Source: a virus (taxonomy: Duplodnaviria > Caudoviricetes). Taken from it: a stretch of 31,378 nucleotides of DNA. The notes under the pieces are model-generated. The model did no database searches. It was not told the origin of the DNA and was given only the letters and a program-made list of their open reading frames with translations. Position 1 is the stretch's first letter; the number at the start of each line of letters is the position of its first letter. Below, one piece after another: positions 5,208 to 31,378 of the stretch. The stretch covers positions 1-31,378 of IMG/VR virus record IMGVR_UViG_3300021124_000025. The stretch is one strand, 5' to 3'. Both the position numbers and the translations under genes were made by a program.

Positions 5208-5503
5208 CCACCTTTCGTGATGACTGGAACGCCTCGCGTCGGCTGTTCCTCCTGCGCCTTCTTGTCGAGGTGCGCCAGGCCAATGAGAGCGTGCTGTACA
5301 AATCGGCCGCGAAGGGAGGCTTTTCCAGCGACACCCGCAACGACATCCGGGAGGACCTCGACCATCTTTGCAAGACGGGCTGCGCCAAACAGGAGTTTCT
5401 CAACGACGTACTGAGGGTGATCAGCATTACCGAACGCGGCGAGGATGCGGCCTATGGACGCATCGCGGTTGCCGGCGTCGAACAAACCCCGTGGGATCGC
5501 TGA
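5204..5503 (+). CDS. Mu gp26-like winged-helix protein
   Basis: RRLFLLRLL..ANESVL...ITERGEDAAYGR..VAGV; TTG start after the AAGGAGG RBS. Confidence 0.8.
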   Translation: MTTFRDDWNASRRLFLLRLLVEVRQANESVLYKSAAKGGFSSDTRNDIREDLDHLCKTGCAKQEFLNDVLRVISITERGEDAAYGRIAVAGVEQTPWDR

Positions 5504-5506
5504 TCA

Positions 5507-6100
5507 ATGTCAAGGCCGTCCAAAATCGATCGCCTGCCACCGGAAATCCGGGAAGAAATCGGATCGCTCCGCGAGCGCGGTTACACCATTGATGAGATCC
5601 TCGGGCATCTGCGCGCCTTCGAGATCGCGCCGCAAGATCGGCCCTCGCGCTCGGGATTGCATCGGCATATTCAAGGTCTCGACAAGATATCGGAACGCCT
5701 GATGCGCAGCCGGTCGGTTGCCGAGGCCCTTGTCCGCAAGCATGGCGATGCTCCGGAAGGCCGCCAGGCGCGCCTTAATATCGAGATCATGCATTCGATC
5801 GTCATGGATCTGCTGATGGCCGCCGGCGATCAGGACGGCGAGGCTGCCGAGTCGGGCGCCGTCACCTTCGATCCTCAACAGGTGAGCTTGCTGGGGAGAA
5901 CGCTGCGCGACCTGTCGTCGGCATCAAAAACCGATGCCGACCTTATCACCAAGCTTCGCGAGGAACAGCGCAAGCTGGCTGAGGCGGAGATGAAAAAGAG
6001 GGTCGATGTCGCCATGGTCGCGGTCGGCAAGGAAAAGGGTCTGAGCGCCGACACCATCGACATGATCAAAAGTCAAATGTTGGGAATTCGGGGCGGGTGA
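5507..6100 (+). CDS. Terminase small subunit, Mu gp27-like (DUF3486)
   Basis: RPSKIDRLPPEIRE, SRSGLHRH, and GLSADTIDMIKSQMLGI terminus. Confidence 0.88.
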   Translation: MSRPSKIDRLPPEIREEIGSLRERGYTIDEILGHLRAFEIAPQDRPSRSGLHRHIQGLDKISERLMRSRSVAEALVRKHGDAPEGRQARLNIEIMHSIVMDLLMAAGDQDGEAAESGAVTFDPQQVSLLGRTLRDLSSASKTDADLITKLREEQRKLAEAEMKKRVDVAMVAVGKEKGLSADTIDMIKSQMLGIRGG

Positions 6101-7692
6101 TGGGAAATCCCGTCTCAAGGGAGGAATGGGAGAGGCTGCGCGCGGATGCGCGCTTTGTCTTGCCTGACCATCTGACCGGGGCACGTCTGCCCGACGTACT
6201 TCTTCCCTATCAGCAGGATCTGCTGGCCACCACGGCGGCGTCCAGGGTAACCGTCGTCGAGAAGTCGCGCCGCACCGGCTATACCTGGGGCGTCGGCTCT
6301 GACGCCGTTCTGACCTCGGCCGGTTCCCGATCGGCTGGCGGCATGGACACTCTCTATATCGGCTATAATCTCGACATGGCGCGCGAGTTCATCGACGTTT
6401 GCGCCATGTGGGCCAGATCGTTCAACCAGGCGGCCGACCAGGTGGCTGAATTTGTTTTCAAGGACAAGGAGGATGAGGGTAAAGAGCGGGATATTCAGGC
6501 TTTCCGCATTCGCTTCGCCTCGGGTTTTGAAATCGTCGCACTTTCATCGCGGCCTCGATCGCTGCGCGGCCGCCAGGGCTATGTGATCATCGACGAAGCT
6601 GCGTTTCATGACGATCTGTCCGGTCTGATGAAGGCGGCGCTCGCTCTGTTGATGTGGGGCGGCAAGGTCCTGGTGATCTCAACGCATGACGGTGATTCCA
6701 ACCCCTTCAATGAAATTGTCGAGAACATCAAAAAGGGGCGCGTGCCCTACATCCTTATTACGCTTGATTTCGACCAGGCGCTGAAAGATGGGCTCTATCA
6801 GCGGATCTGCCTGGTCACCGGCCAGAAATGGTCGCCGGCGGCCGAGGCGGCGTGGCGAGAGGAGATTATTTCCTTTTATGGCGACGCGGCCGATGAGGAA
6901 TTGTTTGTCATTCCCTCCAATGGCTCCGGAACCTATCTGCCGTCCCTGCTCATCGAGCGGGCGCAAAAGCCCGGCATTCCCGTGGTGCGATGGGAATGCA
7001 ACAACGACTTCGTCCATCTCTCGGATCATGTTCGCGAGGCGGAGGCCCTGGCCTTTTGCCGAGAGAAGCTCGACCCTGTTCTTGATCTGATGGATCGGGG
7101 CCTCAAAAGCCATTTCGGCGAAGACTTCGCGATGTCGGGCGATTTGACGGTGATCATACCGATCCAGATCCAGCAAGACATGAGCCGCCGCCCGCCCTTC
7201 GTGCTGGAGCTGCGCAACACGCCTTATGCCCAGCAGCGCCAAATCCTTTGGTATATTGTCGATCGGCTTCCGAATTTCCAGATGGGTGCGATGGATGCGA
7301 CCGGCAATGGCGCGCCGCTGGCCCAGGAGACGGCAACCCGTTACGGGATGAGCAACGTCATTGAGGTCAAGATCAACGAGGCCTGGTACCGGGATGCGGC
7401 ACCAAAATATAAAGCCGCCTTCGAAGACGGTTTGTTCACCCTTCCGCGCGACATCGACATCTACAACGATCATCGTCTGATCAAGATTGTGCGGGGCGTG
7501 CCCCAGATCGACCGTGCGCCACAGGTGCATGGCCGGGGCGAAGATGCCGGCAAGGGCGGCAAGAAGAAGCGTCACGGCGATTCGGCGATCGCCGGAATGT
7601 TGGCGCATTACGCCACGCTGCAATCCCGCGACGACGGGATTATCGAGTTTTACCGCCGCCAGGTCGCGGCATCAAAAGGGGAGCGCACATGA
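6100..7692 (+). CDS. terL: Terminase large subunit, Mu gp28-like
   Basis: LLPYQ, Walker A VEKSRRTGYT, Walker B VIIDEAAFH, ISTH, nuclease motifs GEDFAMSGDL, MDATGNG and HGDSAIA. Alternative GTG start at 6097. Confidence 0.95.
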   Translation: MGNPVSREEWERLRADARFVLPDHLTGARLPDVLLPYQQDLLATTAASRVTVVEKSRRTGYTWGVGSDAVLTSAGSRSAGGMDTLYIGYNLDMAREFIDVCAMWARSFNQAADQVAEFVFKDKEDEGKERDIQAFRIRFASGFEIVALSSRPRSLRGRQGYVIIDEAAFHDDLSGLMKAALALLMWGGKVLVISTHDGDSNPFNEIVENIKKGRVPYILITLDFDQALKDGLYQRICLVTGQKWSPAAEAAWREEIISFYGDAADEELFVIPSNGSGTYLPSLLIERAQKPGIPVVRWECNNDFVHLSDHVREAEALAFCREKLDPVLDLMDRGLKSHFGEDFAMSGDLTVIIPIQIQQDMSRRPPFVLELRNTPYAQQRQILWYIVDRLPNFQMGAMDATGNGAPLAQETATRYGMSNVIEVKINEAWYRDAAPKYKAAFEDGLFTLPRDIDIYNDHRLIKIVRGVPQIDRAPQVHGRGEDAGKGGKKKRHGDSAIAGMLAHYATLQSRDDGIIEFYRRQVAASKGERT

Positions 7693-7976
7693 CCACCCGT
7701 CTTATGCCGCCGGCAACCGGCGCAACCACTATCACCGTCCATGGCCGAACCTACAGCTGTGCTGTGGGAAACACCGTCGACGTTCCGGATCAGGACGCCA
7801 TTGTCATGACCGCCAACGGCTGGAACGCCGTCGCCGGCGGCGGCGCCGTCGGAACCACGGCGCAACGCCCGGCTGTTCCGCGCCCTGGCGTCGAATATCA
7901 CGATACAAGCCTGGGGAAGACCATCATTTTCGATGGGAAAGTCTGGCGTGATCCCGCCAATGGAAGCAGCGTTTAA
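7689..7976 (+). CDS. Small putative virion protein
   Basis: ATGA coupling; GTTAQRP...G.EYHDTSLGKTIIFDGKVW motif resembling fibre/decoration modules. Confidence 0.7.
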   Translation: MTTRLMPPATGATTITVHGRTYSCAVGNTVDVPDQDAIVMTANGWNAVAGGGAVGTTAQRPAVPRPGVEYHDTSLGKTIIFDGKVWRDPANGSSV

Positions 7977-7985
7977 GGGGGTATT

Positions 7986-10286
7986 ATGGTCGGGTTAATC
8001 GAGCGCTTCGCCCTCGCGGCGCGCTACGCCATTACAGGCGATGCGTCGGCGGCCGCGCAATGGTTTGGTCCACACCAGCCACTTGACCCGACCGCCCCCC
8101 CCGCCGTCGAGGGAAGGCGTTTTGATTTCCGGGCGGGCATCAATCTCGCCTACCGGCCGGGCGATGACGAAGGCATCGACTTCGCGCAGCTTCGCGCCCT
8201 TGCCGACAACTTCGGATTGGTGCGCCTGGTGGTCGAAACGCGCAAGGACCAGTTGGCATGGCGGGAATGGGAAATCCGTCCCCGCAAGGGCTGCGCGACA
8301 CGGCCCGACGATCCAGCCATCACGGCAATCACCAGCTTTCTCGAAACCCCCGACATGGAGCATGACTGGGAGACCTGGTTGCGCGCCCTGGTGGAGGACA
8401 TGCTGGTTATCGACGCCGCGACGATCTTCCCCAGGCGGACCGGCAATGGCGAGCTTTACAGCCTCGATCTTATTGACGGGGCCACCATCGGCCGCGTCAT
8501 TGACCCCTGGGGGCGCACGCCGACACCGCCCGCCGCGGCTTATCAGCAGGTCCTCCATGGTCTCCCGGCGGTCGATTACGACGCCAAAAGCCTGCTTTAT
8601 CTTCCGAGGAATTACCGGACCAACCGGATCTATGGTTTCAGTCCGGTCGAACAGATCCTGGTGATGATCAACATCGCGATGCGTCGCGAAATGCACAAAC
8701 TGGAATATTACACCAGCGGTACCGTTCCGGATGCCCTGGCCGGGGTTCCCATGACCTGGAATCCGGATCAGATCGCCGACTTCCAGGAATATTTCGACAC
8801 TCTTCTGAGCGACAATTTGGCTCAGCGGCGGAAAATTCGCTTCGTGCCGGAAACGATCGCCAAAGCGTTTGTCGAGACCAAGGGGGCCGTGCTCAAGGAC
8901 GATTTTGACGAATGGATTGCCCGTTTCGTCTGTTACGCCTTTAGCGTGTCCTCTCAATGGGCGGTCAAGATGATGAACCGTTCGACCGCCGAGAGCGCGG
9001 CGCAGCAGGCAACCGAGGAGGGCTTGGCTCCGCTGCAGGGATGGGTGCGCAACGTCATGACCCGCACGCTGCGCGATGCATTTCTCCGGCCCGATCTTGA
9101 ATTTTGCTGGAAGGAAGATCAGGCCGTTGATCCGGCCGAACAGTCGGAAATTGACGACAGGGACTTGAGAAATGCAAGCCGCACTCTCAACCAGGTGCGC
9201 GCATCTCGCGGCGATGACCCCGTGCAAGGCGGCGATGAGCCCTTGATATATACGGCGGTCGGCGCGGTTCCATTGAAGGATGTGCTCAATCCACCGGCTC
9301 CCACGCCAGCCACCCCGGCGGTTGCGGGACCAGATCCGTCGCCCGACGGCGATGATGATGGCCGTGGTGGCGGAAAAGGACCGGGCGGAGGCGGCCGGTC
9401 TTCCGGAGGTTCCGACAACATGAGCAAGGCCGCCGAAGGTGAGTCTCCCGAACAAAGCCTTGAGATGGCATGGGCGGATTATCTGGGAGGGCAGGCCGGC
9501 CAGGCGAATGGTTTTTTTTTGACCTTGGCGGCGCGAGGGGAAGACCCCAACAAAGCGGCAATCTCCGCTGCCGCTGATCCCTCCGCTCTGGCCGAGGCGG
9601 CGATCGACGCGGCGGCCACCGCGATCGAGCGCCGCCAGCTGGTGGAGCGCACCGCCCGGATTCTTCTTTCCAGCGCGACGGACGCGATTAACGAGGGATT
9701 GGGGGCGCTGGAATCCACCCTCGGCAATGGCGGCGCCGAAGCCGGCATCGTCATGGGGCCGGCCGAGGTCGCCGACATTACCAACCTTGCCCATCCCGAG
9801 GCGGTCGAATATGCCGAGACGCGTGCCGCCCAGTTGGTGTCGCGGATCGATGAAACGACCCGCAATCAGCTCAGAACCCTCATCGCCAACGCTCAGAAAG
9901 AGGGGTGGAGCGCCGATCGCCTGGCCGGCGCGGTTCACGATATGGGCGGCTTCGGCCCGGTCCGGGCGGAGATGATCGCCAGGACGGAGCTGGCCGCCTC
10001 CTCGATCCGCGGCAATCTCGCAGCTTGGACCGCTGCCGCCAATCGGCTGGGTCTGGGCATCAGGAAGCGCGTGATTTTAGGGATCAACGAACAGCACTGC
10101 GCGGCCTGCGAGGACGCTGTCAGAGAGGGTGCAATCCCTCTTTCCGATAGTTGGGGTGTTGGTTTCGCGCCCCCGTTCCATCCTCGCTGCGGGTGCGATC
10201 TGGTACCTGAAGTTATAAGGGACGAGGAGGGACGCCTCGAGTCGAGGAATTTCCCACCACGCGAACGGCATGGAGAACGACCATAA
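7986..10286 (+). CDS. HK97-type portal protein fused to a Mu gpF/SPP1 gp7-like minor head domain
   Basis: Portal motifs (FAQLRALAD, YGFSPVEQI, TLNQVRA..G.DP), Pro/Gly linker, then IDETTRNQL, RAEMIARTE and HC..C...PPFHPRCGC. Confidence 0.9.
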   Translation: MVGLIERFALAARYAITGDASAAAQWFGPHQPLDPTAPPAVEGRRFDFRAGINLAYRPGDDEGIDFAQLRALADNFGLVRLVVETRKDQLAWREWEIRPRKGCATRPDDPAITAITSFLETPDMEHDWETWLRALVEDMLVIDAATIFPRRTGNGELYSLDLIDGATIGRVIDPWGRTPTPPAAAYQQVLHGLPAVDYDAKSLLYLPRNYRTNRIYGFSPVEQILVMINIAMRREMHKLEYYTSGTVPDALAGVPMTWNPDQIADFQEYFDTLLSDNLAQRRKIRFVPETIAKAFVETKGAVLKDDFDEWIARFVCYAFSVSSQWAVKMMNRSTAESAAQQATEEGLAPLQGWVRNVMTRTLRDAFLRPDLEFCWKEDQAVDPAEQSEIDDRDLRNASRTLNQVRASRGDDPVQGGDEPLIYTAVGAVPLKDVLNPPAPTPATPAVAGPDPSPDGDDDGRGGGKGPGGGGRSSGGSDNMSKAAEGESPEQSLEMAWADYLGGQAGQANGFFLTLAARGEDPNKAAISAAADPSALAEAAIDAAATAIERRQLVERTARILLSSATDAINEGLGALESTLGNGGAEAGIVMGPAEVADITNLAHPEAVEYAETRAAQLVSRIDETTRNQLRTLIANAQKEGWSADRLAGAVHDMGGFGPVRAEMIARTELAASSIRGNLAAWTAAANRLGLGIRKRVILGINEQHCAACEDAVREGAIPLSDSWGVGFAPPFHPRCGCDLVPEVIRDEEGRLESRNFPPRERHGERP

Positions 10287-17023: not shown

Positions 17024-17253
17024 CCGCCGGCTGCGGGTACACGCCGTCGCAGATCGACAAGATGTCGCTGCCTCAGGTCCTTGAGCAGTTCGATTATTGG
17101 GAGTCCCAGCCACCGGTCCACGAACTGGTGGCTGCCTATCTCGGATATGAGCGCCCGAAGACGGTAGAACAGCAATGGGCGGAAGGCGCGATGGGTCCGG
17201 CGGAGTTCGCGGCCCATTTCAAACAGACCGGCGGAAAATTGGATAAGTCATGA
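16972..17253 (+). CDS. Frameshifted chaperone extension (gpT-like, -1 frame)
   Basis: The -1 frame is open 16942-17253 (DWVFVYGRLAAGCGYTPSQIDKMSL...YW...PP); slippery G-GGG-GAG at 16972-16978. Confidence 0.65.
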   Translation, partial: GGAGGGGVDWVFVYGRLAAGCGYTPSQIDKMSLPQVLEQFDYWESQPPVHELVAAYLGYERPKTVEQQWAEGAMGPAEFAAHFKQTGGKLDKS

Positions 17254-20126
17254 ATGATGATGCGGTCCAAATCAAGATAACGGCAAACTCCGCCGATCTT
17301 ACCGCTCAGATCGCCAAGGCTGAAGACGCGTTAAAGCGCCTGTCAACCTCCGTTCAGGGCACCACCTCGGGCCTGGCGCCCCTCAACAACGCAACCGCCG
17401 AATTCATTCGTCAATATGACCGTGCGGCGGCGACGCTCGATCGGTCGCGCGCCGCCTTCAGCCACGTCACGGACGCACTGGCAGCCAATGAGATGTCGGG
17501 TTCCCAGGCCGCCCGGGTGATGGGTCTCATTGCCAGCGAGGCCGATCGCGCGGGGGGGGCTCAGGCCAAGCTTGGACATGGAACGGCTGGAACGACCCGG
17601 GAATTTATCGTTCTTGGGCATGAGGTTGTCAGCGGAAATTTTAGCCGCATTCCCGGCTCCCTGATGGTCCTGGCCGAGCGTTCCGGCAATTTGTCGGGAA
17701 TCATGGGCGCGCTCGGATCGACCACCGGCATGCTGGCGATCGGATTCGCCGCCATTGCCGCCGTGTTGTTCGAAGTCGCCAGTTCGTCCGTGCAGGCCAA
17801 CGAGGCGCTCAACAACATCCAGTTGACCATGGCCGCCATGGGACGTGGCGCCAGTTACAGCAAAACGTCGATCCAGCAAATGGTTGTGTCCCTGCATGAG
17901 GTGACGGGCGCGTCCAGATCCGATCTACGCGAAATGTATGATGGCGTTATGTCGATTCCCCGCGCCGCCCAGACGACGCGCGACAGTCTGGTCCGGTTGG
18001 GGCCGGCCTTTGCCGTTGTCACCAAAAAAGACAACAAGGAGGCCGTGGAAGAGCTTTCGAAGTCGTTCTCATCCTTCGGCGGCCTGGAAAAGCTTGCGGA
18101 TCAGTTCACGCTTTTCGGAGTCAGCGAAACAGCCGCGTTCAACGACGCAAAGAAGCTGAATGACATCTGGAAAGCCCAAGACGTCGCCCTTGCCGCATTG
18201 AACCGGCGTTTGCTGGGCACACAGGACGCCTACACCAAGGCGTCTCAGCAATCGGATGCGTTCCAGCGCTTCATGGCTGGCGGTGAGATCCGTCAGGCCA
18301 AGGGGCGTGGCCAAGGGTCTGTCGCGGTTCACCCCCAGACTGGCGAAGGTCCCAGCCAGGACGATCTGAAGGCTATCGACGCCCAGTCCAAAATCGCGGC
18401 GGACACCCAACAGAATGTCGACAAACTGACCGCGTCCTGGCATGGCGCCAAGTCCGATCTGGATGCAACGATCGCGCAGATGTGGGCCGATGCCGTCGCC
18501 AAATACAAGCTCGGCGGCGATACATTGCTGGCCCTCCAGCGCCAGCAACAATCCGCGATGCATACCGCGCAAGACGCGGCCAGTCATGAATCTGTCCAGC
18601 TCGCAGCCGCCGCCCTTGCTGAAAAAACCGCTAAAAGCAATCTCAGCCGCTCCCAGGAGCTATCCGCGCAGATTTCGTCCGACAAGGAGCTGCTGGCGAG
18701 CACCAAGCTGACCTATGAAGATCGTCAGCAGGTCGCGCATGATTTGATGATGGCGGAAGGCAACCTGGTCAAGGAAGGTCAGCGGGTCAAGATGCAGGCC
18801 CTCCAGGAGGGGCTTATCCTCGCCAGGGCCGGGAGTCAGGAGCGGATCGCCGCAGCCGAGAAAGAGCTGCAGTTTGTAACCGCTACCTATGGCAAGGAAT
18901 CGGCGGAATACAAGGCTGCCCTCAAGGAAAAGCAGTCGGCCCAGCGAGAATTTGCCCAACAGCAGGAAGAAATATCGCGGATCCGCCTCGATTCTGAAAA
19001 CGAGGTCAGCCGGATTGACCTGCAATCCTACAAAGACCAACTGGACGCCAAGGTTGCCGCCGGTCAGATGTCGGCCGCGAGACGGTTGCAGATCGAACAG
19101 GATCTTACCCAGCAGATGGCGCAACAGGAAATGGAGCGCCTGCAAAATGCGATCGCCGCCGAGCAGGAAGGCGGCGCGGCCTATGAAAAGCTTTATGGTC
19201 AAATTCAGGTGTTGGTTGCCAGGACCGGCCAGGAACTGAGCAAGCTGGACGCCCAGATCGCCGAGGGGCTGAAAAAGTCGGCGGATAAAGACGACGGGCA
19301 GTTCGACAAGCTCTTCCAGCCCATGGGCCGCGCTTTCGATCAGATGGTCTCCGGCGTGATGATGGGGACCCAGTCCATTCAGCAGGCGATGGCCAGGGCC
19401 GGAATGAACATGGCCACCGCGTTCGCGGCCGATATCCTGAAAATGATTGCCCAGGAAGCGGCTTTCGAGGTGTTCCATGCGCTCGCCTGGAACAAAATGG
19501 CGACAGCCGTACAGGCCGACAGCAGCAAGTCGGCCATGTCCTTCATTTTTGGCAAGACTGAGGAAACCGCCGCCGTCACGGGGGCAACGGCGGCGCAGAC
19601 CGCCGCGGTTACCACGGGAGCCGCTACACAGGCCGCCGCCGTCACCGCCGGTCAAACTGCCCAGTCGGCCGCCGAGAGCACCGGCATTCTGAAACATGCC
19701 GGATCGGCCGCCGCCGCCGTCTATGACGATGTCGCTCAGATCCCCTACGTCGGGTGGATGCTCGCGCCACCGGCCGCCGCCGCGGCTTTCGCCGCCGTCG
19801 CGGCCTTTTCGGCGGAAGGAGGCATGGGCAACGTGCCCTATGACAACGCGCCATTCTATTTGCACAAGCGCGAAATGGTGCTCCCGGCCTCGATCGCGTC
19901 GCCGCTGCGGACCGCCATCCAGAGCGGGTCATTCAGCGGTTCATCGTCGTCAGTTTCATCCATTTCCGGCGGTAATCACACCATCAATGTCAGCATTTCC
20001 GGCGGGGGCAACATGACCGCCGCTCAATTGCTGCAAAATGGACGGGCCGTCGCGCTGTCTATCTCGAACGAACTTCGGAACCTGAATGCCGACCTGATCA
20101 GCGGTCTGCGGAGGGCTGTCGGATGA
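17250..20126 (+). CDS. Tail tape measure protein
   Basis: 958 aa, Ala/Gln-rich and helical; lambdoid-like N-terminal block; C-terminal AEGG...LHKREMVLP. Confidence 0.93.
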   Translation: MNDDAVQIKITANSADLTAQIAKAEDALKRLSTSVQGTTSGLAPLNNATAEFIRQYDRAAATLDRSRAAFSHVTDALAANEMSGSQAARVMGLIASEADRAGGAQAKLGHGTAGTTREFIVLGHEVVSGNFSRIPGSLMVLAERSGNLSGIMGALGSTTGMLAIGFAAIAAVLFEVASSSVQANEALNNIQLTMAAMGRGASYSKTSIQQMVVSLHEVTGASRSDLREMYDGVMSIPRAAQTTRDSLVRLGPAFAVVTKKDNKEAVEELSKSFSSFGGLEKLADQFTLFGVSETAAFNDAKKLNDIWKAQDVALAALNRRLLGTQDAYTKASQQSDAFQRFMAGGEIRQAKGRGQGSVAVHPQTGEGPSQDDLKAIDAQSKIAADTQQNVDKLTASWHGAKSDLDATIAQMWADAVAKYKLGGDTLLALQRQQQSAMHTAQDAASHESVQLAAAALAEKTAKSNLSRSQELSAQISSDKELLASTKLTYEDRQQVAHDLMMAEGNLVKEGQRVKMQALQEGLILARAGSQERIAAAEKELQFVTATYGKESAEYKAALKEKQSAQREFAQQQEEISRIRLDSENEVSRIDLQSYKDQLDAKVAAGQMSAARRLQIEQDLTQQMAQQEMERLQNAIAAEQEGGAAYEKLYGQIQVLVARTGQELSKLDAQIAEGLKKSADKDDGQFDKLFQPMGRAFDQMVSGVMMGTQSIQQAMARAGMNMATAFAADILKMIAQEAAFEVFHALAWNKMATAVQADSSKSAMSFIFGKTEETAAVTGATAAQTAAVTTGAATQAAAVTAGQTAQSAAESTGILKHAGSAAAAVYDDVAQIPYVGWMLAPPAAAAAFAAVAAFSAEGGMGNVPYDNAPFYLHKREMVLPASIASPLRTAIQSGSFSGSSSSVSSISGGNHTINVSISGGGNMTAAQLLQNGRAVALSISNELRNLNADLISGLRRAVG

Positions 20127-20806
20127 CACAACCCTTCCCGACGCTGGCAGGCCAGGACATTTCCATCACCCGGACATCCGAGTTCAAGACGCGGAAACCG
20201 GTCGCGATCAGCGGAAAGGAAACCGCGATCGCCGACTGGAAATACCCGCGCTATACCTGGGAACTCAAAGTCAACCTGCTCCGCCAAGGCTTTTTCCTCG
20301 GCGCGACCTGGCTGGAATTCCAGGAGCTGATGGGGTTCTATAATGCCCGGAATGGCGGTTTTGATACATTCCTGTATCAGGATCCGGATGATTATCAGGT
20401 CAACGGACAGGGGATCGGGATTGGAGACGGCACGCCCCGCTTCTTTCAGCTGGTAAAGAGTTTCGGTGGTTTTGTCGAGCCGCTGCTGGCCGTAACGGCC
20501 GTCGACATCTATTTCAATGGCACCGCGATTTCGACGGGTGGAACAAATTACGGCGGCACCAATTATGAGTGGGCATGGATGGGTTATGACGGCCTCCAAT
20601 ATCCCGGAGGCGGCGTGCTGCCGATCGGCTGGTCGTCAACGCCAGGTCAAATCTGGTTTTCACCGTCGGTTCCCGCCGGCGTCGTTATCACCGCCGACCT
20701 TACCTACAGCTATCCCTGCCGATTTGTCGAGGATCAGTGCCAGTTTGAGCGATTCACGCAGGGCGTCTACGCCGTAAAAAAACTCACCTTCATGTCGGTG
20801 AAATAG
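20123..20806 (+). CDS. Distal tail protein, DUF2460 family
   Basis: ISGKE...W.YPRYTWEL, FYNARNGGFDTFLYQDPDD, IGIGDG..RFFQLVKSFGGFVEP, YPCRF. Confidence 0.88.
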   Translation: MTQPFPTLAGQDISITRTSEFKTRKPVAISGKETAIADWKYPRYTWELKVNLLRQGFFLGATWLEFQELMGFYNARNGGFDTFLYQDPDDYQVNGQGIGIGDGTPRFFQLVKSFGGFVEPLLAVTAVDIYFNGTAISTGGTNYGGTNYEWAWMGYDGLQYPGGGVLPIGWSSTPGQIWFSPSVPAGVVITADLTYSYPCRFVEDQCQFERFTQGVYAVKKLTFMSVK

Positions 20807-20807
20807 C

Positions 20808-21059
20808 ATGAAGCTCTGGTCATTCATTTTCACCAGCCAGACCCACACTCTCCAGAGTGCGAGAGTTGCCGCCCCAAACCAAAGCGAGGCCTGTGCTCAA
20901 ATACAGAGCCTGCTGCCGGACGCCCCCCTGACATTCGGTCCCCGCCCGGCAAGCGAAATCATTCTGAGCTGGATGGGCGAGATCGATGTGCCGAAGGCCC
21001 ATATCATTTCCGTCGTCAGGCGGGACGGCACGACCCTTCATAACGGGGGTGTTTTGTGA
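20808..21059 (+). CDS. Hypothetical protein
   Basis: 83 aa ORF exactly filling the gap; GTGA overlap with the next gene. Confidence 0.55.
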   Translation: MKLWSFIFTSQTHTLQSARVAAPNQSEACAQIQSLLPDAPLTFGPRPASEIILSWMGEIDVPKAHIISVVRRDGTTLHNGGVL

Positions 21060-22216
21060 AACCCATCAGCCCGGAACTGCTCGCATTGCTGGCCACCCGC
21101 CAGTTTTTCGCCGCCGACCTGTTCACGCTCACCCTGCAATCGGGGGTCTCGCTTTATTATTGCGGGGGCGACGCGGATATTGTCGCGAACGGCATTACGT
21201 TCTCGGCCGGCGGTCAAACCGGGCCTTATTGGGACCGCACAGACAACAAGGCCAAATGCCACTGGAAAGTCGGCGTTGACGTTGACAGCCTGGTTATCGA
21301 TGTCATTCCGGGATCGGCCACCATCCTCGGCGTTCCGTTCCTGACGGCCATCCGCAACGGCGTTTTCGACGGCGCCGAGTTCACTCTCGACAAGGTGTTC
21401 ATGCCGACCTACGGCGATACCAGCCGCGGCTTTGTGCGCTATTTCGTCGGGCGGGTAGCACAGATCGACGCTGGCCGCAGCGTGGCGACGTTCAACATCA
21501 ACAGCCATCTTGAGCTTCTCGACGTTCAGATGCCACGCAACCTCTACCAGCCGGGCTGCGTCAATAATCTCGGGGATGCCAGCTGCGGCGTGGATATTGC
21601 CAGCTTCAGCGCCGCCGGGACCGTCGCCGCCGGCTCTTCGGTGGCCATGGTCCTGGGCGCGATCGCGGGAACCCACCAGGCCGGCTATTTTGATCTCGGC
21701 ACCATCACCTTTACCAGCGGCGTGCTGAATGGCCAGAGCTTCACGGTCAAGCAATGCACATACGGCAGCCCCTCGACCATTTCCCTGATGGGCTTTTCGA
21801 TCGCGGCGCCTGCCGCCGGCGACACTTTCACGATCTTCGCCGGCTGCAACAAGAACTGCGACCTGCCGATCAGCGTGCAGGGCATTATGACGGCGGGGCA
21901 GAACAATCTGGTCCTGGTCAATGGCAGCAACGGGGGCGCCGTGCAGATCGGCGCGACGATCACCGGCTATGGCGTGCCGGCCGGCACCACGGTGACCAGC
22001 TGGGAGCCGGGTTCGGGCACGATCGGCGGCTATTCGACAACCGGCAATCTCTACGTTTCCAACAATTTCACCGCGTCATCGAGCAATGGAGCGTCATACA
22101 TCTCCCATCCCTATGTCTGCACATCAACCGGCGTCATGAACGGGTGCTCGAAGTTTGCAAACCTCGCGAACTATCGCGGATTCCCTTATGTGCCACTGCC
22201 AAGCACGGCCTCTTAA
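21056..22216 (+). CDS. Baseplate hub protein, DUF2163/BR0599 family, with C-terminal insertion
   Basis: GVFDGAEF, PRNLYQPGCVNNLGDASCGVD, GTITFTSGVLNG, GDTFTIFAGCNK...CSKFANLANYRGFPYVP. Confidence 0.9.
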   Translation: MKPISPELLALLATRQFFAADLFTLTLQSGVSLYYCGGDADIVANGITFSAGGQTGPYWDRTDNKAKCHWKVGVDVDSLVIDVIPGSATILGVPFLTAIRNGVFDGAEFTLDKVFMPTYGDTSRGFVRYFVGRVAQIDAGRSVATFNINSHLELLDVQMPRNLYQPGCVNNLGDASCGVDIASFSAAGTVAAGSSVAMVLGAIAGTHQAGYFDLGTITFTSGVLNGQSFTVKQCTYGSPSTISLMGFSIAAPAAGDTFTIFAGCNKNCDLPISVQGIMTAGQNNLVLVNGSNGGAVQIGATITGYGVPAGTTVTSWEPGSGTIGGYSTTGNLYVSNNFTASSSNGASYISHPYVCTSTGVMNGCSKFANLANYRGFPYVPLPSTAS

Positions 22217-22687
22217 ATGACGATTCAATCCGAACGTCAGGCAATCATAAGCGAGGCGGCCTCCTGGGTCGGGACGCCCTACCATCATGCCGGGCGGGTC
22301 AAGGGCGCCGGTGTCGACTGCCTGACATTGCTGGCCTGTGTTTTCGAGAATGCCGGGATGATTCCGCCTGTCGACATTCCGCATTACCCCCCCGATTGGC
22401 ACATGCACCGGAGCCAGGAGCTTTATCTTGGCGGCCTGCTCGAATATTGCGCCGAAGTCGAGGGGCCTCCGGAGCCGGCCGACATAGCGCTGTGGAAATT
22501 CGGCCGCTGCTACAGCCATGGCGCGATCGTCATCGCCTGGCCACTGATCCTCCATGCCTATATCGGCCATGTGGTCGGCCAGGAGAATGTAACCGAGGCG
22601 CGATATCTCTCTTATGTCGGCGAGCCGGTTGAGGGCTGCGGCAATCCACGCCCACTGAAAATCTTCCGTCTGAAAAGGTGGATGTGA
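22217..22687 (+). CDS. Tail-associated NlpC/P60 peptidase
   Basis: WVGTPYHHAGRVKGAGVDC, SHGAIV, ILHAY. Confidence 0.92.
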   Translation: MTIQSERQAIISEAASWVGTPYHHAGRVKGAGVDCLTLLACVFENAGMIPPVDIPHYPPDWHMHRSQELYLGGLLEYCAEVEGPPEPADIALWKFGRCYSHGAIVIAWPLILHAYIGHVVGQENVTEARYLSYVGEPVEGCGNPRPLKIFRLKRWM

Positions 22688-25600: not shown

Positions 25601-27552
25601 TTGGGGTGACCGCCTCTCAGGTCTCGACCCTCAACAGTGCGGTGTTGTCGAGCATTGGGGGCGGCGGCAGCTTACAATCCCAGGTCTCCGCGCTGAATTC
25701 GGGGTTGGCTGGCATCCCCGGCACCTATGCGGCGATCACCAGCCTCAACAACACCAGCACGACCGCCGGCGCGGCGGTGGCGGCGGCCGCTGCGACTGTC
25801 GTGGCCGCCAACACCAATGGCTATGCCACGATCACCACAATCAATTCGACCATTGCCGGAGCGACGGGAACCGGGGCGACATCCCTGACGGCGCTGGCGA
25901 CTGCGGTCGGTGCCCAGGGCGGAAACATTTCGACGCTCTCGTCCTCAGTCACCAGTCTGGCGGGGATCACGACGACTCAGTATGGCGTGACCCTCACAAA
26001 CATCGGCTCGGGCGGCGTTCAGGCGGTCAGCGGATTCCAGCTGTTGAATGGTGGATCATCGTCCAGCTCCTTTAACGTCAATGCCGACGCATTCAATATT
26101 TACTCTGCGACCTATCCGCTCGCCGCTGCGTTCGCGATCGGCTATGACGGCACCATCGGTGCCCACGGCGCAATGGTGGTCACCAGCGCGGGTATCGGGA
26201 CGGCAGCGGTCCAAACACACCATGTCGGCGCAAATCAGATCAACAGTTCCCACATCGCCAGCATCAGTGCTTCGGTTATTAACGGCTTGACACTTATTGG
26301 CAACACCATCGAAACCGCTGCGTCGGGGGCTCGCACCGTAATCAGCGCAACGAACAACGCGCTAACCAGCTATGACTCCGGCGGTAACATAGTTGCACAG
26401 GTCGGAAGTGGAACAGGGTGGGCGGCTGGACAGTTTTGGGTGCCAAGCGGAAATCCCGGTGGTTTAATTTCCTCGTTAAATGCCTTCAGCCAGGTTTCGA
26501 CAGTGCCAGCGTTGAACGTCGGCGGCTGGATTCAGATGCAGATGCAGGGGGGCGTCAATAAAATCACGGACATGTCTGGTAATGCCACCATCTCTCTGGG
26601 TGGTCAGGCATCGTTCGGCTCTTTGGTCCTACCCGGTACGACGACAGCAAACATAACCGGCGCGTATAACATCACGGCATCGAACAACATCGCCGCCGGG
26701 TATTTTTCATCATCAGGGATCTCATCGTTCTCACAGGTCGATTTCTCCTATCTTGCATCCTATCTGGGCTATGTCTCGCCGGACCCGTACATCGCCTACG
26801 ACACAACCGGTCATGTTATCACGGTGCACGGCGCCTCATCCTCTGCCGGGTACTCGTTTCAGGTGCTTGGGCAGTCTGGAAAACATGCCTTCATGGGGCA
26901 GGCGTTCAATACGGCGGGAACGGCAGCGGTCGGCGCCGGAATGGTGGGATTCTATGTCAGCGACACCTCCGGGTACGCCTTCAAAGCTATGGCGGGAACG
27001 GCGGGGCCGTTCACCGGCTCTCATGATGCCCTGATCCTCAAAACCGACACGCCGCCCGTTCTTGGGGACATCGTTGTTGGAACGAGCATCGTCAAACATG
27101 GCGACATCTCAAATACCGTCGCCCAGATTACAAGATCTGTGACGCCCAATGACAAAAGGGCGATCGGGGTGTTTGTCTCGTCGTCCGGACTGACCGACCA
27201 GAACGTTCCGGTCCCATATCTGGCCCCGATAACAGTAACGTCGATCGCTCCGGATGGAACCGAAAGTACGACAACAAAATTTGTCGTGACCGACGATTAT
27301 ACATCCATCGAAGCGACCTACAACGTCTGCCTCATCAACGCGTTGGGTGAAGGTCAGATCAACGTCGTCGGAGAAGGTGGGGACATCGCCATCGGCGATC
27401 TGATTGTCACCTCCAGTACTCCTGGTAACGGCATGAAACAGGCCGATGACATCGTGCGGAACTACACCGTCGCGAAAGCCCGTGAGGCTGTGAGTTTCGG
27501 GGGTACGACGACTGTACCGCAGATGATCGCCTGCATTTATGTCTGCGGCTAG
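22687..27552 (+). CDS. Central tail fibre / host-specificity protein with FN3 domain and C-terminal intramolecular chaperone-like domain
   Basis: TSAYGLPIPLYFG, GLCEGPI, WGGCNVWLS.DG, LRRGQHGS, YVKFQSFN; FN3 about 24868-25152; C-terminal FTGSH...LGEGQINV...GDLIVTS..PG.GMKQ. Confidence 0.88.
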   Translation: MSGIFGGGQKNTPPSYTSLALNTSAYGLPIPLYFGCTRAAPNLLWDQNFQSIAHQSSSGGKGGGATVSNYTYTSDIICGLCEGPITGINNIWISGNDSSSTLAAQGMGLALGNYGQAPWSYLAATYANQAVPYSGIAYTYSEAYNLGQSASLPNWGMEIQGFLYGTAPNGMDADPSQVIAGLLTNPHWGGGFPSNRFGTLAVASEVHTIPPAAPYQVTVNESSIYAWNLDVTFLGVPLTCVPGAPGPGQYSQNGAGLYTFNSGGGTVTINYATRTPALPAYQAYTLSQGLWISPGYTSQTALASMLTDIATFTNSRLVFSSGVLTVVPNGTVNITGNGYTYTAPSAPVVSFTEDDFLPNQGSASSSVTDDPVLLTHLRPADQYNDIQIEVLDRNNQYSASICEVPDSALMNKFGRRSQGVQAAHLFSDVVAGNTSVQLLLQRQHIQNKFSHTADIRFSFLDPADVVALTEPDMYLSDQWAAILEIQENDDGTLSFITEEFPTGTGAAATYVVNNSTAIQQNYNAPSPDINTPIIFCPPVAICPSNGLEVWAAVSGLSSSWGGCNVWLSLDGSSYRLAETLNGASRMGVTTSALPIGADPDTTNSVGVNLSVSNGELAGGTAADANQLVTLCYLDGEFISYQSATLTSANNYTLGTLLRRGQHGSAPAAHAINSPFARLDENIAKIQINSLQVGQTVYVKFQSFNLFGGGVLPLSSLTVYPFTIEGAPNNYLVSSIAAAPGFQSVNLTWLNPPNALTALAAVEVWRNTANDITTATHIGDTAHQSAVYVDSGLTTGTAYYYWVRVRDIASNEGPWSESVSATPIQVAANDIATSAVAGAVADANSIQNNFVFAGPTGSVMQAAQPISAISVSTPEGTGVVDVTALAFESGSVPGFVANLATTVATNYLDKASAAATYLTQTDATATYATASSLASLSSIYLGISTASATYLTQTTAAATYATASSLVSLASSFGVTASQVSTLNSAVLSSIGGGGSLQSQVSALNSGLAGIPGTYAAITSLNNTSTTAGAAVAAAAATVVAANTNGYATITTINSTIAGATGTGATSLTALATAVGAQGGNISTLSSSVTSLAGITTTQYGVTLTNIGSGGVQAVSGFQLLNGGSSSSSFNVNADAFNIYSATYPLAAAFAIGYDGTIGAHGAMVVTSAGIGTAAVQTHHVGANQINSSHIASISASVINGLTLIGNTIETAASGARTVISATNNALTSYDSGGNIVAQVGSGTGWAAGQFWVPSGNPGGLISSLNAFSQVSTVPALNVGGWIQMQMQGGVNKITDMSGNATISLGGQASFGSLVLPGTTTANITGAYNITASNNIAAGYFSSSGISSFSQVDFSYLASYLGYVSPDPYIAYDTTGHVITVHGASSSAGYSFQVLGQSGKHAFMGQAFNTAGTAAVGAGMVGFYVSDTSGYAFKAMAGTAGPFTGSHDALILKTDTPPVLGDIVVGTSIVKHGDISNTVAQITRSVTPNDKRAIGVFVSSSGLTDQNVPVPYLAPITVTSIAPDGTESTTTKFVVTDDYTSIEATYNVCLINALGEGQINVVGEGGDIAIGDLIVTSSTPGNGMKQADDIVRNYTVAKAREAVSFGGTTTVPQMIACIYVCG
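25402..25599 (+). repeat. 99-bp (33 aa) tandem duplication within the central fibre
   Basis: YLDKASAAAT-YLTQTDATAT-YATASSLASLSSI followed by YLGISTASAT-YLTQTTAAAT-YATASSLVSLASS. Confidence 0.85.
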
Positions 27553-27567
27553 AGAGGTTTTTTGATC

Positions 27568-28200
27568 ATGGGACTGCACAACCTCGCATCAATGACGACG
27601 CCAACGATTGGTACCGGCGTCATCACGCTCGGCTCTGCGACAACCGGGGCGCTAACGTTTGCCGCCGCCGGTGTCGTCAACGGTGAGACCGTGAGCTATG
27701 CCATTCGGGACGGCAACAATACCGAGTGCGGAACGGGCGTCTATTCCTCCGCTGGCACAACCCTGACCCGATCTCCGGTGAACTCGTCCAGTGGTGGCGC
27801 CCCCATCAATTTGAGCGGGTCCGCCGTGGTATTCCTGGTGACGCTGGCTTCGGACGTCGTGACCCCGGCCCTGTTGGCCGGCGGCACACTGCCCATTGGC
27901 GCGTCCAATATCGTTGAATCGTACAGCAAACTCGTTCCAACGACGGGCTTCGCAATCACGCTGGCGGCACGGCGGACGATTCTCAACCCGGCAGCCACCC
28001 TTGCGGCAGGCACAATCACGATGCCGCCGACGCCTGTGGATGGGCAGGTTTGCACGGTCACATCGACAAAACAGGTGACCGCCCTGACCGTCAGCCCAAA
28101 TAGCGGGCAAGCCGTCGTCTGTGCGCCGACCTTTCTGTCGGCCGGCACTCCGTTTTCGATGCTGTTCCAGGCGTCATCAAACACATGGTTTCCAACATGA
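27568..28200 (+). CDS. Short tail fibre/adaptor protein
   Basis: N-terminus NLASMTT.T.GTG.ITLGSA...ECGTGVY...TLTR...INLSGSA resembles fibre-anchor domains of alphaproteobacterial phages. Confidence 0.7.
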   Translation: MGLHNLASMTTPTIGTGVITLGSATTGALTFAAAGVVNGETVSYAIRDGNNTECGTGVYSSAGTTLTRSPVNSSSGGAPINLSGSAVVFLVTLASDVVTPALLAGGTLPIGASNIVESYSKLVPTTGFAITLAARRTILNPAATLAAGTITMPPTPVDGQVCTVTSTKQVTALTVSPNSGQAVVCAPTFLSAGTPFSMLFQASSNTWFPT

Positions 28201-28214
28201 TGAAGGTTCGCGAA

Positions 28215-31200
28215 ATGCAGAAATTGATTGCTGCCGGCGCATTGGCGCTTATGCTGCCTTGCGCCGAGGTCTCGGGGCAGGTTGGCAATGTGAGTTGCCT
28301 CGGTCTGCCCGCGCTGACCGGCGACACAACAACAACGGCGGGCAACTGCGCGACCAGCACAACCAAAACCGGCGGCGTCTCGTTCGCCCCATCTGCCACG
28401 ACGGACACGACAAACGCCGTCAACATCACAAGCGGAACGCTGCCGGCTACCCGTTTGCCGACCCCCACGGCATCCAGCCTGGGCGGCATCGAGAGTGTCA
28501 CCAACGCGAGCCATCAGTGGCTCTCCTATATTGACACCTCCGGTGTGCCACATCTTTCCCAACCGGCTTTTGCCGATCTTTCCGGCGCGATCGCCTCCGG
28601 CCAGGTCTCCGGGTTGTACACCGGCATAACCGGTGTCGGAACTCTGACGGTTGGCATTTGGAATGGTTCAGTGATTGGATCGTCCTACGGTGGCGCCGGG
28701 ACAACCAGCGGCATTATGAAAGCGAATGGCGCCGGGGCTGTGTCTGCCGCCGCGAGCGGCACGGATTACGCGCCTCCAACATCCGGATCCGCAATTCTGA
28801 AGGGGAATGGTTCAGGTGGGTTCAATTCCGCCACCGCAGGAACCGATTATCTGTCGCCGACAGGCAGCGGGGCGTCACTGACGGGAATTCTCTGGTCGCA
28901 GATAGGGTCTGCACCAACGACGCTATCTGGCTACGGAATAGCATCGCCCCTCCCTGCTAATCAAGGTGGCACCGGGGAGGCTGGCACTGTCACAGGTGCG
29001 TTGAAAGGTAACGGTACCAGTCCCGTTACACAGGCGGGCTGCGCTGACTTATCAAACGGAGCAACCGGGTGCTCTACGGTGGTTGGGACAGCCGCAACCG
29101 CAAATACGGGGTCCAGCGGCTTAACCGTTCCATACCTGAACGGGAATAACACTTACTCAGGAACTTCCAATTTCACGGGAACATTTCAGGTCGGTGGAAA
29201 CGTAATGACGTTCCCAGGTTCTCCGGCCGCATTGCTCGCAACGAATGGAAGTGGTGCATCGCTCACAGGGCTCACCTGGTCGCAGATCGGGTCGACGCCG
29301 ACGACATTGAGCGGATATGGTGTCGGCAGCGTCCCCAACGGCAATCTGGCCTCCCAGACAGCTAACACTGTTCTTGGGGCTCTGACAGCGACCACGCCAT
29401 CCGGCCTGTCGGTGCCGCCTTGCTCTGGCGCAACGAACGCCCTGACATGGACATCTGGGACTGGCTTTGGCTGCAACACTATCTCAGCGGGGGCCACGCT
29501 TGGGGCTAATACGTTTACTGGAAAGCAGACCACAGCAGCTTCAGCCACAGGTGGGGCTGGATTCAATCTACCGGCAGGCACAGCCCCAACCTCACCAGTA
29601 AATGGTGATGTGTGGACAACTTCCGCAGGTATGTACGCCCAGATTAATGGCGCAACGGTAGGCCCGTTTGGATCGGGTGGGAGTATAAGCTATCCAACAA
29701 CCGCCCCTTCAGGCTCATCTTCAGCGCCTGCTTATTCCTTTTCCTCATATACAGGCGAGGGGATGTGGGACAATTCTGGTGTCTTGACTTTGCAGGGCTG
29801 GACCTCCGCATCTCCAGTCCCTTCTGGGGCTATAACTATAGTCAGTGGCACCAATTCAAGTACAGGAGCGACTGGAAATATCAACATTGCAAGCGGTGCC
29901 CAGAGCGGTGCTTCTGGCACAGGGGTATCAGGCAATGTTTCAATTACCACAGGGGCATCATCCCTTGGTAACACCGGAGCCGTCACGATTAACACGGCTT
30001 CTCCGACAACAACCAGTTTAAGCGCCGGATCAATCACTGTTCAGCCTGGAACTACGGCTACGGGGTCCGGCGCGACGACGAATATTTATAGTGGTGCCTC
30101 TTCGGGCACAGCAACCTCTGGGCAGGTCAACATTTCAAGTGGCGCGAACAGCAGTTCCGGTGGCACTGGAAACGTGGTTATTACTACGGGGACGTCAACG
30201 TCCGGCGGCACGGGAGCTGTAAACATCTTGACCGGCACCCCAACGAGTACCTCTCAGTCTCCGGGTAGTATTCAGTTCACCCCAGGATCGACCGCTACCG
30301 GAACAGCGGCATTTACAACAATCTATGCCGGATCATCTACAGGAACAGCAACGGCTGGACAGTTGTCGCTCCAGGGAGGATCAAACTCCTACGCTGGGGC
30401 GGGTACGGCTGGGGCGGTGCTCGTTGCAGGTGGAGGACAATTAATCGGGTCCGGTAGCGGAAATGGCGGAGCGGCCAGCGTAACCGGAGGGGGTGTCGCG
30501 GGGTCGGGGACCGGAGGTGCGGTGACAATAGCCTCTGGATCCAGCTCAGGCACGGGTACCTCTGGCACAGTCACAATCAAAAGTGGAACCTCGATAAGTG
30601 GGTCCACCGGGCCAATAGCCATAAGCACATCAAACGCGGCGTCAAATAAGACCGCTGGATCTATTACGATCTCAGTCGGCTCATCCACCGGAGTATCCGG
30701 GACGGCTGGTACAATAAGTCTGACTTCTGGATCGTCGGCTAGTGTTGCTGGGGGCGGGATTACACTTACAGCGGGTACCGGAGGTACTGGCGGGGGTGCC
30801 GTAGGCATCACAGGTGGTTCTGGCGGAAGTAGCACAGGGGGGACCGTTACGCTGACGGGGGGAGCCAACACAGGCGTTTCAAACGCCGGGGGGGTAAAAC
30901 TTCAAGGTGGAAATGCTAGCGGCATAGGTGGTAACGGAGGTTCGGTCACCCTTCAACCCGGCACATCCTCCTCCGGAACAGCCGGGAACGTCGCCTTTGC
31001 CAGTGCGACAGGAACAACCATGTTTACTGTAAATGCCTCTGGAGCCATTCACGCAGTGACCACTGTAGGAGCATTGCCGACCTGTAATGCTGGTGCTCAG
31101 GGGGCTGTTTGGGTGGTGACCGACGCCAGTTCCCCGACATGGAATGCCACGCTGACGGGGGGTAGTTCCACGGTTTGTTTGGCGGTTTGTAACGGCACAA

Positions 31201-31217
31201 ATTGGACGGCCCATTGA
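28215..31217 (+). CDS. Gly/Ser/Thr-rich fibre/adhesin-like protein with putative signal peptide
   Basis: AAGGT RBS then MQKLIAAGALALMLPCAEVSG-Q; PTTLSGYG fibre motifs; long beta-solenoid-like repeats. Alternative coupled ATG at 28197. Confidence 0.8.
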   Translation: MQKLIAAGALALMLPCAEVSGQVGNVSCLGLPALTGDTTTTAGNCATSTTKTGGVSFAPSATTDTTNAVNITSGTLPATRLPTPTASSLGGIESVTNASHQWLSYIDTSGVPHLSQPAFADLSGAIASGQVSGLYTGITGVGTLTVGIWNGSVIGSSYGGAGTTSGIMKANGAGAVSAAASGTDYAPPTSGSAILKGNGSGGFNSATAGTDYLSPTGSGASLTGILWSQIGSAPTTLSGYGIASPLPANQGGTGEAGTVTGALKGNGTSPVTQAGCADLSNGATGCSTVVGTAATANTGSSGLTVPYLNGNNTYSGTSNFTGTFQVGGNVMTFPGSPAALLATNGSGASLTGLTWSQIGSTPTTLSGYGVGSVPNGNLASQTANTVLGALTATTPSGLSVPPCSGATNALTWTSGTGFGCNTISAGATLGANTFTGKQTTAASATGGAGFNLPAGTAPTSPVNGDVWTTSAGMYAQINGATVGPFGSGGSISYPTTAPSGSSSAPAYSFSSYTGEGMWDNSGVLTLQGWTSASPVPSGAITIVSGTNSSTGATGNINIASGAQSGASGTGVSGNVSITTGASSLGNTGAVTINTASPTTTSLSAGSITVQPGTTATGSGATTNIYSGASSGTATSGQVNISSGANSSSGGTGNVVITTGTSTSGGTGAVNILTGTPTSTSQSPGSIQFTPGSTATGTAAFTTIYAGSSTGTATAGQLSLQGGSNSYAGAGTAGAVLVAGGGQLIGSGSGNGGAASVTGGGVAGSGTGGAVTIASGSSSGTGTSGTVTIKSGTSISGSTGPIAISTSNAASNKTAGSITISVGSSTGVSGTAGTISLTSGSSASVAGGGITLTAGTGGTGGGAVGITGGSGGSSTGGTVTLTGGANTGVSNAGGVKLQGGNASGIGGNGGSVTLQPGTSSSGTAGNVAFASATGTTMFTVNASGAIHAVTTVGALPTCNAGAQGAVWVVTDASSPTWNATLTGGSSTVCLAVCNGTNWTAH
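28863..29324 (+). repeat. Dispersed 26-aa repeat (28863-28940 and 29247-29324)
   Basis: GSGASLTGILWSQIGSAPTTLSGYGI versus GSGASLTGLTWSQIGSTPTTLSGYGV. Confidence 0.9.
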
Positions 31218-31344
31218 GGTTAATTTCGTGCCTATCCGCTTAACGCACACACCTACTAGATATTGCGGCCTGAAAACTGCGCCCCTGACACCAATGCCAC
31301 ACGTTCCTCAGCAGAAAATGTGAGGTCAGTTTTGGGGTACAGGA

Positions 31345-31367
31345 TGACAAATGTCCGTCTAAAAATG
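31345..31367 (+). promoter_or_regulatory. Putative activator-binding dyad (copy 3), for a gene beyond the window
   Basis: TGACA-AA-TGTCC-GTCTAAAAATG, resembling GGGCAAATGTCCGGGTTCTGAAAAATG at 2499. Confidence 0.55.
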
Positions 31368-31378
31368 ATCGCCGATCT

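Follow-up and report, generated by a model that had tools for sequence, protein, structure and literature searches.

The particles of tailed phages are understood to be finished inside the cytoplasm, but are all of their parts made there? The question is raised by the last gene of an uncultured phage contig, IMG/VR record IMGVR_UViG_3300021124_000025 (the window: one whole contig of 31,378 bases, a partial phage genome with its genes read on the + strand). This gene, which follows a tail-tip gene and a short gene termed the stub, encodes P0001, a fibre-like protein of 1000 residues with a predicted Sec signal peptide. Sequence comparison makes it highly probable that P0001 is exported via Sec and folded with disulfide bonds. 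The explanation that we favour, with slightly more confidence than doubt, goes further: P0001 would be an exported mosaic fibre that forms a disulfide-bonded trimer in the periplasm and joins the cytoplasm-built particle at lysis. P0001 is not a one-off but belongs to a large class; it is a real feature and a member of an apparently undescribed group of fibre-like proteins that carry a signal and paired cysteines and are encoded in phage virion modules.

Predicted signal peptide of P0001

The first-pass annotation of the window had picked out this gene as a giant open reading frame (ORF), and the ORF is indeed real. In a read check of positions 26500-31378, contigs of three metagenome runs covered P0001 with no differing letter, indel or joint, these runs being perhaps the window's own source, and a fourth run, with 22 of 30 bins covered, again revealed no differences. 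A frameshift or assembly error linking the stub and the fibre was ruled out by the lack of an indel or joint in the four runs and by the conservation of the stub end in P0245. P0001 had no Pfam hits, no PHROG hits and no PDB-sequence matches at E<=1. An AAGG at 28203-28206 favours the start at 28215, and the stub stop overlaps the in-frame ATG at 28197 (ATGA).

Signal peptides were called with a tripartite rule of our own, which scores a basic n-region, an uncharged h-region and small residues at -3 and -1. For calibration it was applied to two E. coli regions with existing annotation, whose proteins we sorted into classes ourselves with the help of product names; 17 of 20 exported proteins passed there, as did 2 of 41 cytoplasmic and 2 of 14 membrane ones. 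The N-terminus of P0001, in which basic, hydrophobic and cleavage regions had been noticed before, passed from both starts proposed for signal prediction, 28197 and 28215, with the cut between G21 and Q22. None of 928 internal windows of P0001 passed, compared with 450 of 5000 shuffles of residues 2-36 (9%). Among the 35 other ORFs of the window a single one passed (3048-3518); it follows an endolysin-like gene and is likely a holin or spanin. For P0001 alone the evidence for a signal is good, not overwhelming; it is the family that makes it strong.

Relatives of P0001 and features that track the signal

A protein search gave 278 relatives among 8000 scored candidates (120 listed), and the profile library gave 5059 (150 listed); the 240 distinct relatives considered here are those retrieved from the matches listed. 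They form a patchwork that shares short modules with the first 500 residues of P0001. The survey of homologues that had been suggested earlier found the signal rule passed by 129 of the 240. Module scans of viral contigs covered the best 80 of 517 loci plus 60 loci, and 122 of these 140 were kept after duplicates, 5'-open and unmapped ORFs had been dropped. Thirty-three of the 122 passed, a count that includes two apparent false calls (L004 and L089) and misses some true signals behind long in-frame extensions. Among other long ORFs of the same loci 69 of 705 passed, and 27 of 479 when normally charged. Low-charge other ORFs passed in 29 of 75 cases in signal-bearing loci vs 13 of 151 elsewhere, which indicates that signal-bearing low-charge genes cluster.

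Cysteine density, even parity, pair spacing and a Gln at +1 all lie outside the scoring of the rule. Signal-bearing relatives contain 1.17 Cys per 100 residues and leaderless ones 0.31. Exported proteins tend to even Cys counts; the ratio of even to odd counts was 104:23 in signal-bearing and 40:52 in leaderless relatives (zero counts excluded; Fisher p 4e-9, which overstates the certainty because the relatives are not independent samples). The median spacing in signal-bearing relatives was 16 residues within successive pairs and 90 between them. Cyclisation of Gln occurs at processed N-terminal ends, and Gln is the first mature residue in 54 of 125 signal-bearing relatives vs a background of 3%. 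Ala at -1, present in 120 of the 125, was not used as evidence since the rule scores that position. The first 20 residues were 25% alike among signal-bearing relatives and 72% among relatives of the stub, a pattern as expected of signals and not of a docking motif.

These data bear on an improbable alternative, namely that the N-terminus of P0001 is merely signal-like and belongs to an ordinary cytoplasmic fibre, with disulfides formed in air after lysis. The rule has false positives and passed 9% of the shuffles, and disulfide-linked virion proteins are known for which spontaneous oxidation is offered as a route in the available text of PMC13576161. However, the N-termini diverge in sequence and still keep the pattern across 125 distinct relatives, neither the +1 Gln nor the even Cys counts were scored, and leaderless versions of the C-terminal domain described below lack one or both Cys.

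Composition, shaft modules and repeats

The very low charge described earlier amounts to 24 charged residues in 1000, and Gly, Thr, Ser and Ala together make up 64% of P0001. Its ten Cys are found at positions 16, 28, 45, 276, 286, 403, 420, 957, 988 and 992. Of the pairing read from them by the first-pass annotation, the three local pairs (28/45, 276/286 and 403/420) stand, whereas in the C-terminal trio only 957/992 is the family's conserved pair and 988 is extra. The reported fibre motifs could each be located twice (PTTLSGYG at 234 and 362, LKGNG at 195 and 263, GTDY at 182 and 209). Shaft modules of P0001 also occur in annotated leaderless fibres such as Rhizobium phage Paso gp46 and the StenR_269 fibre, and several relatives carry pectate-lyase-like beta-helix or sugar-binding domains. 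Taken with the gene slot and the trimer model below, the modules common to leaderless fibres support a fibre nature of P0001.

The G-x-V/I-x-I/L-x-x-G repeats noted earlier are present far above chance, with 19 matches to a strict form (G-x-V/I/L-x-V/I/L/F-x(1-2)-G) in residues 535-945 vs a shuffle mean of 1.0 (maximum 6 in 2000), but their unit measures 14-19 residues, mostly 15-17, instead of 13-15. The repeat region had one relative among 8000 scored candidates, the leaderless P0364. AlphaFold2 (AF2) without an alignment gave an unusable model of residues 535-1000, with a predicted local distance difference test (pLDDT) score of 38.6. The ESM Atlas leads for P0001 were viral hypothetical clusters and HylP at 0.86, all with a template modelling (TM) score < 0.5. 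For this region a trimeric beta-helix is no more than a lead.

C-terminal domain and trimer model

P0001 ends in a small beta domain that was followed through other phages with a six-sequence alignment. This search, whose patterns favoured Cys-bearing forms, led to 28 viral and 3 genome loci, or 23 after removal of seven duplicates and one false match. In every carrier the domain sits at the very end of the protein, although the carriers range from 87 to 1119 residues. A signal was found in 20 of the 23 (in L245 from a later start); the remaining three comprise one 5'-open ORF, one leaderless protein and one with a signal-like stretch in another frame. At L257 (5900-8168) such a stretch lies upstream of the fibre ORF in another frame, perhaps through a frameshift or an error of assembly. 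The conserved Cys occur together in 20 of the 23 carriers and in 19 of the 20 signal-bearing ones. The leaderless L254 lacks the first of them, and in the leaderless P0282 (320 residues), where the N-terminal domain of the stub is fused to a P0001-type C-terminal domain, neither is present. Two profile matches of the C-terminal domain were both dismissed as chance.

Ten carriers are signal-plus-domain proteins of 133-139 residues encoded just before the head-tail adaptor gene in podophage-type genomes; in L258 the flanks of the small carrier were confirmed as major capsid and adaptor. By their sequences, the signal-bearing domain proteins of 87-139 residues are candidates for exported capsid ornaments. 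Small carriers of this kind (L258:7749-8150, L237:5028-5429, L253:7896-8159 and similar) lie between capsid and adaptor genes, and one was also seen in a Paraburkholderia saeva prophage. We are evenly divided on a broader proposal: many tailed phages would send fibres, spikes and small head ornaments via Sec, fold and cross-link them in the periplasm and pick them up at lysis. P0001 would be an example, and the C-terminal domain, which some phages have in a leaderless form free of Cys and others with a signal and its Cys pair, would record the switch of route.

With a 24-row alignment, AF2 predicted a compact beta domain over the last 52 residues of P0001 (pLDDT 86-92). A three-copy model of residues 690-1000 scored 0.36 vs 0.00 for the best control, with a pLDDT of 51-52 and 86% contact agreement between runs. 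The score cleared its mark, which 21 of the 30 solved pairs and none of the 23 single chains used for calibration attained; three copies are outside this calibration. Confident contacts were confined to residues 896-1000 and include 986-989, so that, as a guess, Cys988 may sit near the trimer axis. With moderate confidence, the three-copy model suggests that P0001 is a homotrimer.

Gene neighbourhoods and cultured relatives

Of the 33 signal-bearing loci, 32 entered the neighbourhood scan, with a total of 99 neighbours. In 20 of the 32, a nearby gene belongs to a head, packaging, neck, tail or ejection family; of the others, one had lysis genes only, one a methyltransferase and ten no named family. 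In L042 and L079 the signal-bearing gene follows baseplate wedge genes. At L267, a tail-tip relative, a different signal-bearing protein with six Cys is encoded directly after the tip gene. The same slot holds a leaderless protein in L269; two loci are cut short, and the cultured phages Polewnik, KT1 and Effie have no such protein there. The match that would have pointed to an N-terminal domain common to the L267 and L269 proteins lacked significance (E 0.27). In QDWS, L105, L109 and L137 a signal-bearing gene is preceded by a short, leaderless, fibre-like gene from another family. A signal-bearing low-charge protein of 120-157 residues is often encoded immediately upstream of the long one with a signal, or else right behind capsid genes (L225:1630-1992, L081:8167-8574, L093:8137-8610, L221:1767-2171), possibly as a docking or helper subunit.

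The class is represented in cultured phages. Xanthomonas phage PBR31 gp35 (269 residues) combines a signal with the module of residues 370-428 and is encoded in the tail block, between a leaderless tailspike, which it follows, and the holin. The available main text of the PBR31 paper does not contain 'gp35' and notes a signal for the esterase gp40 only (PMC10975493). Proteomics of virions appears neither in that text nor in the available text of the Bm1 paper. The QDWS record contains, in its tail block, an ORF of 687 residues with a signal and a shared module whose start is missed by the annotation. In L142 (7782-9845; OK094664) the annotation places an ORF on the opposite strand and gives the true gene a start that is 800 bases too late, which hides the signal. 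OK094664 agrees with OP650936 in length (47,902) and in the match, but the stated hosts of the two are very different.

The stub and the route to the virion

Among 362 proteins that share modules, nine have an N-terminus that matches residues 1 to about 100 of the stub, and all of these are leaderless; none of 119 stub relatives passed the signal rule. The domain that heads leaderless fibres thus stands where P0001 carries its signal. Judged by sequence, it probably binds the virion, which would make the stub a candidate docking partner of P0001. As a single query the whole stub found no viral locus, and a profile match of its domain to a cyanophage neck fibre was at chance level (E 0.48). Leaderless proteins of PfAn1, ct76p945 and LPKP23 contain a module that is matched by the second half of the stub (27940-28200, residues ~124-208).

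In the explanation that we favour, P0001 would be co-expressed late with the tail genes, exported by the host Sec pathway and cut before Gln22. Host-catalysed disulfides 28-45, 276-286, 403-420 and 957-992 would form in the periplasm, where the protein would also trimerise. Once the inner membrane is opened at lysis, P0001 would bind the finished particle, most likely via the stub of 212 residues or the tail tip, and act as an accessory long fibre for the first, reversible contact, the leaderless tip protein of 1624 residues doing the committed binding. Given export, we consider docking on the virion at lysis fairly probable.

Several findings weigh against this explanation. The signal of P0001 is predicted with our own rule and is less typical than those of the relatives, with Gly at -1, a c-region that contains Glu and Cys, and a hydrophobicity of 1.45 over the best 19 residues. 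The mature protein would have nine Cys, three local pairs plus three in the C-terminal domain, an odd number that leaves one unpaired. Leaderless proteins can be Cys-rich, with 12 Cys in the tip protein of this contig and 14-16 in leaderless fibres of phage KT1, and the virions of Agrobacterium phage Milano are disulfide-linked according to the available text of PMC10811340; Cys alone therefore need no export. The stub and an exported fibre are not a conserved pair, as far as sequences tell: downstream genes were present at 48 of the 72 distinct loci with the stub domain, a signal was called within four genes in 4 of the 48, and at most one of these (L201) resembles a fibre. The 20 signal-bearing loci amid virion genes divide into 11 on the tail side and 9 on the head or packaging side, so the gene slot does not fix the docking site. 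In the cultured Burkholderia myophage Bm1, gp99 (1001 residues) has a signal and a P0001-type C-terminal domain and lies among small non-structural genes; gp39-41 are three leaderless fibres plus a chaperone. Bm1 is the best argument for an accessory and perhaps non-virion role of the signal-bearing proteins.

Such a role is the core of an alternative that we regard as unlikely, though well worth weighing, in which P0001 is exported and disulfide-folded but never enters the particle. As a free trimer, released at lysis or kept in the periplasm, it would mask receptors, block competing phages or loosen the capsule. That gp99 is encoded away from the structural genes in Bm1, which already has a complete set of leaderless fibres, agrees with this, as do the lack of a conserved stub partner, the position of PBR31 gp35 between tailspike and holin, and the beta-helix or sugar-binding domains of relatives, which could act freely. 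It fits less well with the 20 of 32 signal-bearing loci amid virion genes, some of them inside head or baseplate blocks, or with the ten small signal-plus-domain proteins just before the adaptor gene, which follow the major capsid gene where this was checked; long shafts would also be more sensible on a particle.

The end-of-prophage slot commonly holds accessory genes, and P0001 is last on a contig whose Mu-like genes suggest a temperate phage. It might then be a moron, an adhesin made by the lysogen for the host surface that reuses fibre modules as the mosaic adhesive trimer (MAT) fibres of Bdellovibrio do; we consider this improbable, to about the same degree as a false signal. The available text of PMC10769870 describes MAT fibres as signal-bearing, chimeric, phage-like trimeric surface fibres with diverse tips. 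On the other side, P0001 has no transmembrane segment after its signal (best 19-residue score 1.18), no lipobox (Cys16 is preceded by M-L-P) and no outer-membrane barrel in its sequence, nor a Pfam match to one. Its gene overlaps the stub gene, the number of sigma-70-like promoters in 26500-31378 was 0 vs 2.3 expected (a weak test), and relatives occur in Bm1, a virulent phage by the available text of PMC12003559. The interpretation given by the first-pass annotation is partly supported: comparison supports its export and disulfide folding well, whereas the host-surface adhesin that it also offered is the weakest part, there being no anchor, lipobox or separate promoter and an overlap with the upstream tail gene.

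Comparison with known systems

Leaderless mosaic tail fibres are the nearest relatives in kind. Paso gp46 and the StenR_269 fibre have a shaft module in common with P0001, and these two and Bm1 gp39-41 resemble it in their slot at the end of the tail operon, low charge and predicted trimer. They differ in that they are without a signal, contain 0-4 Cys and have either a chaperone or a virion-binding domain at the N-terminus, whereas P0001 has a signal in the place of the anchor and no S74 or chaperone gene was seen with it. P0001 works like a fibre, with its tail-module slot after the tip gene and shaft modules common to annotated fibres, but departs from classical tail fibres in lacking a leaderless N-terminal virion-binding domain; the fibre-heading domain lies in the separate upstream gene.

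Among exported proteins, the filamentous phage pIII is a Sec-exported, disulfide-bonded receptor-binding virion protein that is anchored in the membrane and enters the particle while a non-lytic phage is being extruded. P0001, in contrast, lacks an anchor helix, and its phage is tailed and has an endolysin-like gene. Prophage-encoded trimeric autotransporters (Eib, YadA-type adhesins) have a signal peptide, short beta repeats and a trimeric state; P0001 differs from them in having no C-terminal barrel anchor and no Pfam YadA match, its C-terminus being a small soluble Cys domain. Like the MAT fibres, P0001 carries a signal peptide on a mosaic fibre. The MAT proteins, as far as their description was available, are chromosomal predator surface proteins with a conserved domain of ~130 residues after the signal, whereas P0001 is encoded in a phage tail operon and has no PDB sequence match. 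Disulfides in virion proteins, receptor-binding proteins included, are described for Milano and for the siphovirus tail tube gp39. The Milano text, where available, contains neither 'signal peptide' nor 'periplasm' (PMC10811340), and for gp39 host DsbA or air oxidation is suggested without an export route in the accessible part of the paper (PMC13576161). The head filament of phiCbK is covered in PMC3556154, likewise available in part. No description of signal-bearing fibres of tailed phages was found in the literature searched by word match, which left out most subscription papers.

Joining of the virion at lysis, if true, would be categorically new. With an exported fibre that joins at lysis, morphogenesis would gain a second compartment as well as an oxidative-folding step supplied by the host, the host range of a phage would depend on the secretion and Dsb proteins of the host, and signal-bearing 'hypothetical' genes in virion modules would be missed receptor-binding proteins. 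If the proteins stay free, they would form an unrecognised class of phage-secreted adhesins or decoys. The cultured carriers PBR31 (gp35) and Bm1 (gp99) make the proposal directly testable.

Other features of the contig

The genes of the window point to a Mu-like siphophage. Mu-type genes identified with Pfam and PHROG are GemA, a late-activator family and a Mu gp27 small terminase; the contig also encodes a terminase, a portal, head-tail genes and a tape measure, together with an endolysin-like hydrolase (Table 1). No transposase was found in the window, a partial contig. The metagenome runs with this DNA are freshwater samples, three of which may be its source, and no RNA datasets are listed as carrying it.

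Table 1 Features of P0001 and of the tail region of the window
Feature	Position	Strand	Basis or remark
Tape measure, DUF2460, phiJL001-gp84-type hub and NlpC/P60-like genes	17250..22687	+	Pfam, PHROG; non-contractile tail tip module of gene transfer agent (GTA) type
Leaderless tail-tip / central fibre protein, 1624 residues	22678..27552	+	Phage-tail_3, Rcc01698_C, fibre-J-like
Leaderless stub, 212 residues, ATG at 27568	27562..28200	+	First ~100 residues are a domain heading leaderless fibres
P0001, fibre-like protein, 1000 residues	28215..31217	+	In-frame alternative starts 28197, 28200
Predicted Sec/signal peptidase I (SPase I) signal peptide, residues 1-21, cut before Gln22	28215..28277	+	Rule-based
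Mosaic fibre-shaft modules (~residues 57-131, 149-222, 370-428, 432-488) with three local Cys pairs	28278..29678	+	Module-sharing relatives
About 26 Gly/Ser/Thr-rich beta-strand repeats, G-x-V/I-x-I/L-x-x-G	29826..31049	+	Period 14-19
C-terminal beta domain of ~50 residues, conserved Cys957/Cys992 pair and extra Cys988	31062..31214	+	Alignment search, AF2 model

The layout is a hybrid: alongside the regulatory and small-terminase genes of Mu type, region 1637-10286 has a Phage_portal (PF04860) protein to which a head-morphogenesis domain is fused, and the tail tip is that of a siphophage of GTA type. Phages of Brevundimonas, Pseudomonas and Acinetobacter have tip proteins with 32-38% identity to the tip protein of the window, and because of this resemblance the host is likely Gram-negative. 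The tip protein of the window is ~600 residues longer than its closest viral relatives (1013-1020 residues), and its C-terminal part is long and low in charge.

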